The notes below the pieces were generated by a model. That model made no database searches and was not told the DNA's origin. It saw only the letters and a list, made by a program, of their open reading frames with translations. Made by a program: the position numbers and the translations under genes. This document shows positions 50,136-53,309 of a stretch of DNA of 64,000 bases, piece by piece. This DNA is from Acidobacteriota bacterium (lineage in GTDB: Bacteria > Acidobacteriota > UBA4820 > DSQY01): contig JBMFSH010000001.1 in assembly GCA_049967655.1 (NCBI GenBank), forward strand, positions 64,001-128,000, given 5' to 3'. Each line of letters begins with the position of its first letter. Within the stretch, counting starts at the first letter, position 1.

Positions 50136-53100
50136 ATGCAGGCATGGCTGAGAGCGGTGCTGGTCGGCGCGGTGGCGATGGCGTTGCTGGCGGTGCTGGG
50201 TGTCCTGATGTTGCCCACCTCCACCTTCACCGGCCGCTTCTGGCTGTACCTGCTGATCTGCGGCGCCCTGGCCGGCGGGGCGGCGGCCCTCTCCCGCCGG
50301 GAGGCCGCGGCGGACCAATCCCCTCTGGACCAGATGCTCCGCAGCCTGGCCTCCGGCAACCTGGCCATCGGGGTCGACGCGCTCTCCCGGGAGGTCACGG
50401 AGGCACACCCCGGCTTCCTGCGGGTGCTCCGCTCCTTCCAGAACATCATCAGCTATCTCCAGGATACGGCGGAGAGCGTCTCCACCGCCTCCAGCCGGAT
50501 CACCGACAAGACCCGCAGCTTCTTCCGGGAAGCCAAGGATCAGGCCGAGTCCGTGACCCAGGTCCGGAACTCCATTGCCGAACTCGAAAACGAGATCGAG
50601 AAGGTGGTGGAGGGGGTGGACATCCTCTCCGGTTTCACGGACAAAACCAGTAGCTCCATCCTGGAGATGCGTGCCTCCATCGAGGAGGTGCTGGGCGCTA
50701 CGCGGAACCTGTCGGACTTCGTGGACGAGATCAGCGCGTCGATCGAGGAGATGGTGCGCTCCGTCGAGGAGGTGGCCGGCCACGCCGAGAGCCTCTCCTC
50801 CTTCGCCGTCCAGAACTCCTCCGCCATGGTGCAGATGGACGCCACGATCGGGCAGATCGAGGCCAACATCCAGGAGGCGGAGGTCATGTCCAACCAGGTG
50901 TCGACCGCCGCCCAGGGCGGGGTGACCGTGGTGAAGGAGACGGTCAACGGACTGGAGAAGATCCAGGCCGCCATGAACGCGAACATGGCCTCCATGGAGT
51001 CCCTCAGCCAGAGATCCAAGGAGATCGGCAAGATCCTGAAGGTGATCCGCGATATCGCCGACCAGACCAACCTCCTGGCCCTCAACGCCGCCATCATAGC
51101 GGCGCAGGCGGGCGAGCACGGCAAGAGCTTCGGCGTGGTCGCCGAGGAGATCCGGGATCTGGCGGAGCGCACCTCCGCCTCCACCTCCGAAGTGGGCACC
51201 ATCATCCTGACGATCCAGAAGGAGGTGGAGCAGGCCGGCCGGGTGGCCCGGGAGGGCACGCAGCGGGTCGAGGAGGGGGTCCGGCTGGGGCGCGCCTCCG
51301 AGGACAACTTGAAGAGCATCCGCGAGTTTATCGAGACGGCCGGCACCAGCATCAGCCACATCGCCCGGGCGACCTCGGAGCAGGCCAAGGGGAGCCGCCA
51401 GGTGACCACGGCCATCGAGGAGATGACGGGCAGGATCGAGCAGATCTCCCTGGCCACCCGCGAACAGGCCAAGACCTCCAAGCTCATCAGCCAGAAGAGC
51501 CTGGTCATGAAGGAGCTGACCAAGAGCGTGGACCGGGCCATGCAGGAGGAGGCGCTGGGCAGCCGCGCCATTGCCGACGGAATGGACCAGGTCCGGAGCT
51601 CCGTGGAAAAGGCGCAGAAGGCCCTTTTGCGCATGTCCCAGGCCGGCCAGCAGATCGTCAAGGCCGTCGATACCGTGGCGGCGGTGTCCCAACAGAACCT
51701 CGCCGGGGCGAGGGATCTCTCCTCGACCGCGGGAACCCTTCGCCAGGACAGCATCCTGATGGTGGAACAGCTGTCGGGATTTAGGCTGCCCAAGCCCGTT
51801 CCGGGCGGCGAGATCCGCGTGGGTTACGTTCGCTACGAGTTCAACATGGACCACGCCTTCGCCGACAACGTCCGCGATTCGGCCCTGGTGGAGAACTTCA
51901 ACGAGGGCCTCGTGAAGTTCGGCTACGGCACCAAGCTCCTGCCCGCCGTGGCCGAGAGCTGGGACGTGAGCATGGACGGCTTGGTGTACCTGTTCCACCT
52001 GCGCCCCGGGGCGCTGTTTCACAACGGCCGGGCGGTGACCGCCGAGGACGTGGTCTTCTCGTGGCACCGGGCGCTGGACCCCAAGCTGGGCAAGGAGGGG
52101 CAGTGGTTCCTGTCGGCGGTGGTGGGCTCCGAGGAGTTCATGGCGGGAAAGGCCCGGCGGATAGAGGGAATCAGGGCGTTGGACAGCCGGTCGGTGGAGG
52201 TCCGACTCCGGGAGCCCCTCGCCTTCTTCCTCTACATGCTAACCGCCCCGGAGGCGAGCATCATCCCCCGCGAGGCCATGGACGAAAGAACCCTCCGGAT
52301 CACAAAGCCTATCGGTTGCGGGCCTTTCCGCGTGGTGAGCGCGGAGCCGGGCCGGGTCCAATTCGAACGCTTCAAGGGCTATTACGAACCCGGTCTGCCC
52401 TACATCGACCGGCTCGTGTTCGACTACTCCTCATCCTCCGAAAGCGAGCTGTTGGGGCGACTGAAATCGGGGGCGTCGCAAATAGTCATGGCCCTCTCCT
52501 CCGAAAGCCTGGAGGGCCTGCTGGCGGATCCCTTCTGGCAAAACAACACGGAGCAAACCATCCTCCTCAACACCCAGATCCACGTCATCCGCAACGACCT
52601 GGCGCCGGGGAACATCAAGGAGTTCAGGCAGGCCCTCAACTACGCCGTGGACAGGAACGGCCTCCTGGCCCGCTACCCCCACGTGCGGGCCACACCGGCC
52701 AAGGGGATCTTCCCTCCCGGCATCCTCGGCTACAAGGCGGACCGCAAGGGCTACTACCACGACCCGGACAAGGCCCGGTGGCTGCTGGCCAAGGCGGGCT
52801 TTGCCCAAGGCCTCGATTTGACCATTGCCATGGACAAGAGCCGTGCCACGCAATTCCAGGAGGCCCTCCTGATCTTTGACATGTACCGAGCGGTGGGCGT
52901 GCGCATCACGGTGGACCCGGTGAGCCACGAGGAGTTCGAGGCGCGCCGCAGAGCCGCGGGAGGCCGGCCCCTCATCTACCCGTCGGGGTGGTACGCGGAC
53001 TACCCGGACCCAGACAGCTTCCTCTTCGTGCTTTTCCACCGGCTGGGGGGCGACGCCCTCCAGACCCGATACCACAACCCCCTCCTCGATGACCTCATCG

Positions 53101-53309
53101 AGCGCGCCCGCCGATCCCTCGACCTGCAGGAGAGGGCGGCGCTGTACGAGGAGGCCGAAGACCTCATCATCGAGGAGGCGCCGTCCGTCTTCCTGACGCA
53201 CAGCTGGGGAATGATACCGCACCGGCCGGAGGTGATGGGCATGAAACTCTCCTTCACACCACCGCTCATGCGGACTCACCACATTTGGCTGGCGGAGGGA
53301 GCCAGGTAA
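50136..53309 (+). CDS. Methyl-accepting chemotaxis protein fused to a C-terminal family-5 solute-binding (OppA/DppA-like) domain
   Basis: Two N-terminal TMs; IADQTNLLALNAAIIAAQAGEHGKSFGVVAEEIRDLAERT; then PAVAESWDVS.DG..Y.FHLR.G..FHNG..VTAEDVVFSW and WYADYPDPD. Confidence 0.93.
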   Translation: MQAWLRAVLVGAVAMALLAVLGVLMLPTSTFTGRFWLYLLICGALAGGAAALSRREAAADQSPLDQMLRSLASGNLAIGVDALSREVTEAHPGFLRVLRSFQNIISYLQDTAESVSTASSRITDKTRSFFREAKDQAESVTQVRNSIAELENEIEKVVEGVDILSGFTDKTSSSILEMRASIEEVLGATRNLSDFVDEISASIEEMVRSVEEVAGHAESLSSFAVQNSSAMVQMDATIGQIEANIQEAEVMSNQVSTAAQGGVTVVKETVNGLEKIQAAMNANMASMESLSQRSKEIGKILKVIRDIADQTNLLALNAAIIAAQAGEHGKSFGVVAEEIRDLAERTSASTSEVGTIILTIQKEVEQAGRVAREGTQRVEEGVRLGRASEDNLKSIREFIETAGTSISHIARATSEQAKGSRQVTTAIEEMTGRIEQISLATREQAKTSKLISQKSLVMKELTKSVDRAMQEEALGSRAIADGMDQVRSSVEKAQKALLRMSQAGQQIVKAVDTVAAVSQQNLAGARDLSSTAGTLRQDSILMVEQLSGFRLPKPVPGGEIRVGYVRYEFNMDHAFADNVRDSALVENFNEGLVKFGYGTKLLPAVAESWDVSMDGLVYLFHLRPGALFHNGRAVTAEDVVFSWHRALDPKLGKEGQWFLSAVVGSEEFMAGKARRIEGIRALDSRSVEVRLREPLAFFLYMLTAPEASIIPREAMDERTLRITKPIGCGPFRVVSAEPGRVQFERFKGYYEPGLPYIDRLVFDYSSSSESELLGRLKSGASQIVMALSSESLEGLLADPFWQNNTEQTILLNTQIHVIRNDLAPGNIKEFRQALNYAVDRNGLLARYPHVRATPAKGIFPPGILGYKADRKGYYHDPDKARWLLAKAGFAQGLDLTIAMDKSRATQFQEALLIFDMYRAVGVRITVDPVSHEEFEARRRAAGGRPLIYPSGWYADYPDPDSFLFVLFHRLGGDALQTRYHNPLLDDLIERARRSLDLQERAALYEEAEDLIIEEAPSVFLTHSWGMIPHRPEVMGMKLSFTPPLMRTHHIWLAEGAR

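Follow-up and report, generated by a model that had tools for sequence, protein, structure and literature searches.

Introduction

What could a chemoreceptor sense when it has no sensor outside the cell and carries, behind its signalling module, a binding protein of the kind that normally serves transport? This question is raised by a single gene in a stretch of 64,000 nucleotides from an Acidobacteriota bacterium (GenBank assembly GCA_049967655.1, contig JBMFSH010000001.1, positions 64,001 to 128,000 of the forward strand), the whole of which is referred to below as the window. The gene encodes the signalling hairpin of a methyl-accepting chemotaxis protein (MCP), followed in the same frame by a substrate-binding protein (SBP) domain of family 5, SBP_bac_5. 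Few chemoreceptors with a C-terminal domain have been studied (e.g., PilZ in Tlp1), and the domains concerned bind second messengers or metals. The Acidobacteriota, a phylum difficult to culture, are abundant in soils and sediments.

An earlier note, made from the letters of the window, described the product as an inside-out chemoreceptor whose binding domain sits in the cytoplasm and senses internal peptides or metabolites. The results presented here argue for a cytoplasmic binding domain that is joined to the end of an otherwise complete long receptor. The reading that is judged slightly more probable than its negation is that the protein serves as an internal sensor of small peptides or amino-acid-like compounds and drives a non-flagellar Che pathway.

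A Conserved Fusion in One Reading Frame

The frame is open from 50100 to 53309 on the forward strand without interruption (1069 codons, protein P0001). Residues are numbered throughout as in P0001, counted from the ATG at 50100. The one uninterrupted open reading frame that the earlier note reported at 50136-53309 is thus present as described, with both Pfam families in it. On the whole protein, Pfam recognises only these two: MCPsignal (PF00015) at residues 291-443, with an E-value of 2e-44 and 151.8 bits against a cut-off of 34.6, and SBP_bac_5 (PF00496) at residues 613-980, with an E-value of 3e-70 and 237.8 bits against a cut-off of 32.4.

The protein belongs to a family. In a homologue search with 8000 scored candidates, there were 1104 matches at E <= 0.001, and the best 120 of these were listed. 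All 120 carry both Pfam families, giving at least 120 homologues of the same architecture. They are 1041-1084 amino acids (aa) long, save for one fragment of 822 aa, and their named sources are metagenome-assembled genomes of Acidobacteriota or Thermoanaerobaculia. The name given to them by the NCBI pipeline is “ABC transporter substrate-binding protein”, which is misleading for MCP-SBP fusions.

A match at E <= 1e-60 was obtained in 62 of the 301 genomes that sample the phylum. A single match runs across both halves of the protein in 44 of the 301, and a 45th (G263) is cut by the end of its contig. The spanning match is found in the window's genome and in 20 of the 20 sampled genomes of its family, as well as in three of the four genomes of the sister family, always as one per genome. 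The phylum tallies of carriers, and those of CheW genes given below, include two genomes flagged as unpublished (G152 and G049); no single claim depends on either.

It could be held that the fusion is an artefact in which assembly or a frameshift has joined an MCP gene to an SBP gene. No support for this was found, and it is refuted, with a probability that is practically nil: the same continuous frame recurs in the 44 genomes and in all 120 listed homologues, the motif at the junction is invariant, and contigs bridge the junction with 0 gaps. The earlier note had asked for read support over 51750-51850; independent contigs from two sequencing runs cross the junction gap-free. An 8 kb contig of run X6 (record 19) covers 51200-52400, and contigs of run X1 (records 3 and 4) bridge the junction. 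The sequencing artefact that the earlier note had allowed for can be set aside.

A maximum-likelihood tree (unrooted) separates 22 fused from 12 stand-alone SBP domains by one branch with support of 98/95, which is consistent with a fusion that arose once. This tree omits both stand-alone SBPs encoded in the window's genome, as their aligned stretch is shorter than 380 residues. A first scan of genome contigs returned mostly MCP-only relatives from Myxococcota, Nitrospirota and others (alignment A1). Its sole full-length SBP_bac_5 fusion is L028, which makes it uninformative on range, but the Nitrospirota loci L022 and L024 discussed below also came from it. A scan with the SBP half alone gave five near relatives only.

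The ESM Atlas holds further clusters with MCPsignal and SBP_bac_5. Their lengths are 1048 aa, 936 aa and 827 aa; the few members with a label are Myxococcota in the first and Bacillota in the last. In the 827-aa form, the binding domain may lie outside, as an N-terminal sensor.

A Long Receptor without an Outside Sensor

The receptor half begins with a two-helix anchor. Hydrophobic windows are found in the window's protein only at residues 13-27 and 47. An AlphaFold2 (AF2) model of the monomer, built from the 120-sequence alignment and having a mean predicted local distance difference test score (pLDDT) of 79.5, has one helix at residues 10-37 and, after a short break, another at 45-84. Taken together, these place membrane helices at residues ~16-38 and ~47-64 with a loop of eight residues, in agreement with the earlier note, which had described two transmembrane segments, a short spacer and no periplasmic sensor.

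The second helix of the model (45-84) is followed by a connector (85-93) and a further helix (94-182). Gly86 of this helix-connector-helix segment is invariant in the 120 members, and Gly86 and Leu88 are both among the residues kept in at least 90% of them. The segment stands in the place of a HAMP domain, and the earlier note had called it HAMP-like. The predicted structure, with its invariant glycine, agrees with that description. The formal assignment does not: Pfam HAMP (PF00672) has no match in the whole protein at E <= 0.01, nor in residues 60-130 or 13-130 at E <= 10. The segment may work like a HAMP domain on the strength of the model, yet it is not classed as one here.

The hairpin turns at residues 336-338. 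MCPs are divided into classes by the number of heptads in the hairpin, in the scheme of Alexander and Zhulin. Counting from Glu339 at the tip, Phe561 lies 222 residues (31.7 heptads) further on; a descending arm of equal length would start at residue 117, where the helix-connector-helix segment has just ended. With ~32 heptads per arm, the receptor fits the 64H type, a class set here by length only. The 64H class is among the recognised MCP classes (PMC8235581).

The tip is strongly conserved. Nearly all positions of the pattern QTNLLALNAA..AGE.G..F.VVA.EI are identical throughout the 120 family members, and so are most of residues 322-351. Gln336 is found in 120/120 and Ile333 in 119/120, and these two residues occupy the places of Glu and Arg in a 44H-type receptor of the same genome, encoded on contig C3. 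The Ile/Gln variant is common to the genome's other two long receptors and to relatives in Nitrospirota. As to adaptation, six Glx pairs of the window's protein lie in a relaxed methylation context, and one fits the strict consensus.

The Fusion Point

The binding domain is joined to the hairpin by the short sequence F561-R-L-P-K-P-V-P-G569-G570. All 120 members have F561, G569 and G570, and at least 90% have P564. The pattern F.LP.P..GG is retained in distant clades, a comparison in which L126 and L143 yielded no motif.

The window's genome itself contains the receptor without the addition. Sister receptors encoded on contigs C15 and C40 have an ascending arm of the identical 222 residues and end four (C15) and three (C40) residues after the equivalent Phe, as ...FQIEE* and ...FKLV*, respectively. 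Their tips read IIAAQAGE and IIAAGAGE, and all three long receptors share IIAA(Q/G)AGE. The fourth receptor, on contig C3, has an arm of 152 residues and the tip IEAARAG. Because the two sister 64H receptors stop at this point, the SBP has been appended at the very end of an otherwise complete local 64H-type receptor. The mature domain of several stand-alone relatives begins with a similar RGG and then a strand. Since the junction is conserved and several stand-alone relatives start in this manner, the last heptad of the hairpin runs into the opening strand of lobe I with almost no spare linker.

Location of the Binding Domain

The anchor can be oriented by its charges. Members of the family have on average 1.69 Lys plus Arg residues ahead of helix 1, 0.38 within the loop and 3.41 behind helix 2. 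Under the positive-inside rule, the anchor would have its two ends in the cytoplasm, an orientation that the hairpin needs in order to reach CheA and CheW. No membrane segment was found between helix 2 and the binding domain in any family member. An extra hydrophobic window near residue 700, seen in 14 of the 120 members, is the buried core of the SBP (EPLAFFL...) and not a membrane helix.

Comparison with stand-alone relatives adds to this. Fourteen such proteins were compared, 12 from other genomes of the phylum and two from the window's own, and a signal peptide with a lipobox Cys lies immediately before the domain in 14/14. In the fused form, the hairpin stands where the stand-alone relatives have their signal peptide and lipobox; no signal peptide precedes the fused domain, and the 500 residues before it form a cytoplasmic hairpin. 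Export of the binding domain is very unlikely, because the export signals of the stand-alone proteins have been replaced by the hairpin.

The fused protein also lacks what marks the functional class of ABC-transporter SBPs, with neither an export signal nor an adjacent Opp/Dpp-type permease gene. An ordinary importer of the Opp/Dpp type is encoded on contig C9, where the genome's single OppC_N permease gene lies next to a gene for a stand-alone SBP.

An opposite view would be that some uncommon topology or route of export brings the domain to the outside, where it senses peptides as a tethered SBP. Every characterised SBP_bac_5 transport protein is extracytoplasmic, and the label given by the NCBI pipelines points the same way. 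Nevertheless, this view is very improbable, given that ~500 hairpin residues without a membrane segment separate helix 2 from the SBP and must themselves reach cytoplasmic CheA and CheW, that the charge bias keeps both anchor ends inside, and that the signal peptide, the lipobox and adjacent permease genes are all absent. The cytoplasmic, membrane-proximal position proposed in the earlier note is therefore upheld, as a prediction from charge bias, the lack of any later transmembrane segment, and the loss of export signals that 14/14 stand-alone relatives possess.

Fold, Pocket and Ligand Class

The earlier note had recognised a complete OppA/DppA-like domain of ~500 aa from about 51800 onwards, with no further transmembrane segment, and Pfam, searches of the Protein Data Bank (PDB) and the AF2 model all agree on the complete domain for residues 571-1069. 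A PDB sequence search finds 8upi at E 3.5e-54 and Escherichia coli DppA (1dpp) at E 3.6e-45, the latter over chain residues 24-493 of 507. The pLDDT of the SBP block is mostly 84-97, and the model predicts an intact, closed two-lobe fold. By Foldseek, TM-scores normalised to the target are 0.86 for 8upi and 0.81 for liganded 1dpp. The model is nearer to the liganded than to the open form of DppA (0.81 for 1dpp vs 0.63 for 1dpe).

In NCBIfam, the best match to the second half of the protein is DppA, with an E-value of 2e-43 and 148.8 bits against an equivalog cut-off of 1005. Because the score is a small fraction of this cut-off, the binding domain is considered a relative of DppA and not DppA itself. 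The nearest solved structure, 8upi, is a rhizobial “peptide-binding protein” crystallised with aminoserine. Other near structures are the DppA-like protein 6ofq of Helicobacter pylori (with a tetrapeptide), the glutathione-binding protein GbpA (3m8u) and E. coli DppA with Gly-Leu (1dpp).

Two pocket positions give a first indication of the ligand. Residue 915 aligns with DppA Arg355, which we take to be the carboxylate clamp of that protein. It is Arg in 38/38 members of the near clade, to which the window's protein belongs, and Glu in 77 of the 82 members of the far clade. The second position, Asp967, is kept in 120/120 members within the motif WYAD.PDPD, itself invariant in 120/120, and it aligns with DppA Asp408. 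The amino terminus of the ligand is bound through a salt bridge by Asp408 in DppA and by its equivalent, Asp432, in GbpA (PMC3295651).

The loop around the first position (residues 910-919, family alignment A2) reads D-x-S-R-x-x-Q in the near clade and W-D-T-D-E-F-N-N-S in the far clade, where the counterpart of DppA Arg355 has the opposite charge. This difference in the pocket loop suggests two ligand classes among the fused subfamilies. The pocket of the window's clade looks built for a short zwitterion, namely a di- or tripeptide or an amino-acid derivative, while that of the far clade probably reads another kind of ligand. Of the internal peptide or metabolite sensing put forward in the earlier note, the peptide-like ligand is thus a reasonable guess from the alignment of Asp967 with Asp408 and of Arg915 with Arg355; binding itself and control of the kinase are inferred.

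It has also been considered that the SBP binds no small ligand and is a protein-binding or spacing module instead. It could capture the peptide tail of an adaptation enzyme or array component, thereby inverting the arrangement in E. coli, whose receptors carry a pentapeptide tether, or it could set the spacing of the receptor lattice beneath the membrane. OppA/DppA-type domains do bind short peptide segments, the receptor has no C-terminal pentapeptide of its own since the SBP ends the protein, and the loss of the clamp Arg in the far clade would permit an N-terminal segment that continues into a protein. Set against this are the invariance of Asp967 and WYAD.PDPD in all 120 members and the closed two-lobe model, which best matches liganded structures. 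Moreover, the near clade keeps both charged end-clamp residues, as befits a short free ligand if the presumed role of Arg355 holds. A module of this kind is regarded as improbable, though less so than export of the domain.

Che Machinery and Possible Output

Partners for the receptor are encoded elsewhere in its genome (3.14 Mb, 99% complete). A solitary CheA adjoins an AAA_22 ATPase on contig C8, and contig C3 carries a cluster of CheR, the 44H receptor, a CheW-like protein, CheA and CheC; there is no CheA beyond these two. On contig C15, an exported ABC_sub_bind protein, a 64H receptor and CheW are encoded in a row. Contig C9 (L014, ~9900-16700) has a series composed of CheW, a response regulator, a 736-aa HEAT-repeat protein, CheR, CheB, a GAF protein and CheY, a cluster without CheA and without a receptor.

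The earlier note had proposed a search for the cognate CheA and CheW, and candidates for both are encoded in the genome at a distance from the window (CheA on C8 and C3, CheW on C15 and C9). Its observation that the window holds no che genes is borne out for the annotated 38-64 kb, without implying an orphan receptor, as che genes lie elsewhere in the genome. Across the phylum, CheW-domain genes are found in 45/45 carrier genomes vs 136/256 non-carriers, in lists that were compared by eye and that include related genomes which are not independent.

The row of genes on contig C15 deserves separate mention. At locus L012 (9389-12981, minus strand), the ABC_sub_bind protein (PF04392) has an N-terminal signal-like segment and is encoded directly upstream of the 64H-type receptor. 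This receptor has a large outside region; its gene overlaps that of the ABC_sub_bind protein, and CheW follows. The pair looks like a classical pairing with a binding protein in trans, in the same genome as the fused internal version.

Because no match to the flagellin, FliG and FlhA families was found in this near-complete genome, the output of the receptor is predicted not to be flagellar. ATPases of the T2SSE family (secretion or pilus type) have ten matches in the same genome. One of these ten lies in the window at 21517-22683 (C1:85517-86683) with an E-value of 6e-132.

A Proposed Mechanism and Its Weighing

The following scheme is proposed for the internal sensor. With a two-helix anchor and no outside sensor, the C-terminal SBP would be the only candidate input module. 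It would lie just under the membrane, inside the cell and beside the helix-connector-helix segment, and would close on a small cytoplasmic ligand whose amino group is free. For the window's clade, a carboxylate would be expected on this ligand too, which di- and tripeptides or derivatives of amino acids could provide. A rigid joint would tie lobe I to the C-terminal helix, and closure of the domain would alter the packing of the membrane-proximal four-helix bundle. Transmitted along the hairpin as far as its tip, this change in packing would reach CheA and CheW and thereby affect CheA activity. CheR and CheB from contig C9 would adapt the receptor. Output would pass through a non-flagellar Che pathway made up of CheA from C8, CheW from C15 or C9, and CheR, CheB and CheY from C9, with type IV pilus motility or another cellular function as the most plausible target.

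There is an alternative in which the real input is the membrane anchor together with the helix-connector-helix segment, responding for example to the state of the membrane or of cell energy, and the SBP, once its ligand is bound, merely tunes sensitivity or adaptation as PilZ does in Tlp1. A tuning role for PilZ and other C-terminal domains has been proposed by Russell et al. 2013 (PMC3604760). The SBP is located at the end of the adaptation-region helix, Glx pairs are present in that region, and CheR and CheB are encoded in the genome, all of which would suit a tuning domain. Nonetheless, no sensor other than the SBP is recognisable in a protein with an eight-residue loop and no Pfam families besides MCPsignal and SBP_bac_5, and the junction is conserved like the tip, which suggests tight mechanical coupling and no loose accessory. 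Tuning is considered unlikely, with perhaps one chance in a handful.

Several points weigh against an internal peptide or amino-acid sensor that controls the kinase. Location, ligand binding, ligand class, kinase control and output have all been inferred. The usual coupler between input and output is only presumptive, as Pfam HAMP does not match. Only one Glx pair meets the strict methylation consensus, and the pLDDT is 48-68 over much of the hairpin. The ligand of 8upi is aminoserine and no peptide. A peptide as ligand cannot hold for the whole family, in which the carboxylate-clamp Arg is Glu in most of the far clade. One in-frame stop is found in three of the 44 spanning matches (G040, G155 and G084). 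Finally, no che gene, peptidase or transporter consistently adjoins the receptor gene in the annotated loci, and gene context gives no functional pointer.

Comparison with Known Systems

A cytoplasmic sensor domain after the hairpin is a known kind of arrangement, and the bare architecture is already present in domain catalogues and automatic annotations. The closest parallel in organisation is Tlp1 of Azospirillum brasilense, a transmembrane receptor with a cytoplasmic small-molecule domain after the MCP signalling domain, by which an internal ligand is integrated. Tlp1 differs in having a periplasmic sensor too, and its domain is a small PilZ domain that binds c-di-GMP. Here, a 500-residue SBP is the sole candidate sensor of a 64H-type receptor, in a host without matches to flagellar genes. 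Russell et al. 2013 (PMC3604760) report a C-terminal PilZ on 52 of 20,681 chemoreceptors and “several hundred” with other C-terminal domains. The legend of Fig. 8 of the same paper, taken by itself, lists “SBP_bac” and “Phosphonate_bd” among the C-terminal domains in Pfam architectures, with the SBP_bac family unspecified.

A second parallel is provided by MCPs of Nitrospirota (L022 and L024). They have the tip NASILAAQAGE, 33-34% identity to the hairpin of the window's protein and an added domain predicted to be cytoplasmic. This domain, of the Phosphonate-bd (PhnD-like) family, begins ~10 residues after the point that lies 222 residues beyond the tip, and after GG, as here. It differs in being of the oxyanion type PF12974 and ~240 residues long, and these receptors have an outside region and a HAMP domain that Pfam recognises. 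In both loci (L022 5413-8202 and L024 8102-10957), the gene adjoins that of a second long receptor without an extra domain.

In E. coli, the SBP_bac_5 protein DppA gives the chemoreceptor Tap its ligand signal (Matilla et al. 2021, PMC8050422, Table 1). DppA is separate and exported, and docks on the periplasmic domain of a 36H receptor. In the protein described here, by comparison, the SBP is covalently fused, inside the cell and at the opposite end of the signalling module. The E. coli regulator SgrR has an SBP_bac_5 domain as well and serves as a precedent for such a sensor inside the cell; we take it to be cytoplasmic and to sense sugar-phosphate stress. SgrR differs in having a DNA-binding output domain and no MCP. 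The NCBIfam model of SgrR (NF010149) matches residues 613-762 weakly, with an E-value of 5e-9 and 35.3 bits against a cut-off of 476, and much less well than the DppA model does (E 2e-43). An SgrR-type regulator was considered and rejected, as there is no Pfam helix-turn-helix domain and the SgrR model stays far under its cut-off. TlpD of H. pylori, whose C-terminal zinc-binding domain is presumably CZB, is a soluble receptor with a fold unrelated to binding proteins. It is alike in being a chemoreceptor whose C-terminus matters for function (PMC13001251).

In the searches made, no literature that analyses MCPsignal followed by SBP_bac_5 was found. The chemoreceptor literature found to name SBP_bac_5 deals, in the parts available, only with binding proteins acting in trans or with surveys of SBPs, and the available part of the review PMC8050422 treats binding proteins in signalling only in trans. 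The earlier note had reckoned with an architecture that was already functionally characterised, and in the literature searched this is not the case. What has yet to be characterised is a conserved receptor, present as a single copy, whose only sensor is a family-5 binding protein inside the cell.

Gene Features and Neighbourhood

The coordinates of the features are collected in Table 1. Two start codons are in frame, and the ATG at 50136 is the likelier site of translation initiation, because the -10 hexamer of a sigma-70-like promoter overlaps the ATG at 50100, because the Shine–Dalgarno-like sequence GGAAGGAGG sits 10 nt 5' of the ATG at 50136, and because the ESM Atlas entry begins at P0001 residue 13. 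This Atlas copy comprises the protein from residue 13 onward. The promoter is a consensus match only, with one site vs a mean of 0.4 in shuffled sequences. No sigma-54 promoter (consensus TGGCAC-N5-TTGC) was found in the window. A search of 49800-53500 gave no terminator-like site 3' of the stop; the sole such site is on the minus strand within the gene, and this is fewer than shuffled sequences yield.

In a metatranscriptome (run X16), two short contigs of a ~94%-identical relative match at 51200-51281 and 51805-52039; neither bridges the junction, and they are not proof of transcription. Word shares are at most 0.24 in all sequencing runs compared, and the habitat is therefore left unnamed.

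Table 1. Positions in the window of the MCP-SBP fusion gene, its parts and its neighbours
Feature	Position	Strand	Residues or components	Basis or remark
rel	47632..49896	-	HD_4, RelA_SpoT, TGS, ACT_4	divergent neighbour; context only, not shown to be part of the system
Sigma-70-like promoter	50075..50104	+		TTGACA at 50075, 18-nt spacer, TATGAT ending 50104; 11/12 matches
Shine–Dalgarno-like GGAAGGAGG	50117..50125	+		10 nt before ATG 50136
MCP-SBP fusion coding sequence	50136..53309	+	1057 aa from ATG 50136	frame itself opens at ATG 50100
Predicted membrane helix 1	50145..50213	+	~16-38	hydropathy, AF2 helix 10-37
Predicted outside loop, 8 residues	50214..50237	+	39-46	no periplasmic sensor
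Predicted membrane helix 2	50238..50291	+	~47-64	hydropathy, AF2
Helix-connector-helix in HAMP place	50295..50447	+	66-116	AF2, family alignments A1 and A2
MCP hairpin, descending arm	50448..51113	+	117-338	~32 heptads; Pfam, AF2, heptad count
Hairpin tip, kinase-control region	51063..51152	+	322-351, QTNLLALNAAIIAAQAGEHGKSFGVVAEEI	family alignment
MCP hairpin, ascending arm	51114..51782	+	339-561	tip Glu339 to Phe561, 222 residues
Junction F561-R-L-P-K-P-V-P-G569-G570	51780..51809	+	561-570	invariant F561, G569, G570
Complete two-lobe SBP_bac_5 (DppA/OppA-like) domain	51810..53306	+	571-1069	Pfam, PDB, AF2, Foldseek
Arg915 codon	52842..52844	+	915	aligns with DppA Arg355
Asp967 codon	52998..53000	+	967, WYADYPDPD motif	aligns with DppA Asp408
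Downstream block	53370-55819	DUF6982 on minus strand	DUF6982, ACT_6, DUF711, unnamed 228-aa gene, RidA	DUF711: PF05167, E 1e-169

The receptor gene is divergent from rel, and 3' of it the order is DUF6982 (on the opposite strand), ACT, DUF711, an unnamed gene and RidA. Divergent rel is found in 8/10 loci of the window's order and in 0/10 loci from more distant carriers, and the series ACT, DUF711, unnamed gene and RidA is kept in the same order in 9/10 and 0/10, respectively. DUF6982 was detected in six of the ten loci of the window's order. Because this synteny is confined to the window's own order, the rel neighbour looks like inherited gene order. The link to nutrient status that the earlier note had seen in rel is not supported, since the arrangement is absent from the distant carriers compared.

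The annotation of distant loci covers six, with the low-GC loci L134, L137, L138 and L140 left out. Genes for a polyprenyl synthetase, an EamA transporter and an ECF sigma factor are neighbours in two of them, and a polyprenyl synthetase with an ECF sigma factor in a third. One locus has hprK-rapZ, and one a GNAT acetyltransferase with an M20 peptidase. A lone ABC ATPase-domain gene is located 2-3 kb away in two of the six. No che gene or Opp/Dpp-type permease gene was found next to the receptor in any annotated locus.

A direct repeat rich in G, GGGACAGGGGACAGGGG, is also present in the intergenic region between rel and the receptor gene. It is located at 49880-49930, immediately 5' of the start of rel, amid GGGAGG-type words on the strand opposite rel.

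Biological Significance

A transporter-type binding protein as the sole internal sensor of a chemoreceptor would represent a different mode of sensing, one that links the internal nutrient pool to behaviour. If the mechanism proposed above is correct, a non-flagellated cell would use the small peptides or amino-acid derivatives in its internal pool to direct movement by pili, or some other Che output. Metabolism-dependent taxis would then be read directly by a Venus-flytrap domain, and the subfamilies with Arg915 and Glu915 would read different metabolites. On its own, the domain of 500 residues is expected to be soluble and to lend itself readily to ligand screening.

The common fusion point shared with a different binding-protein family in Nitrospirota suggests a general design rule for long receptors. 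It may be, although we rate the chance at somewhat under even, that long (64H-type) receptors are a general platform for inside-out sensing. On this proposal, such receptors would have taken up exported binding proteins on at least two occasions (family 5 for Acidobacteriota, the PhnD type for Nitrospirota), each time at the same residue after the hairpin, and these proteins would now act as cytoplasmic ligand sensors. For the family of the window's organism, the matter would concern every member sampled, as the gene is present there in single copy in every sampled genome.

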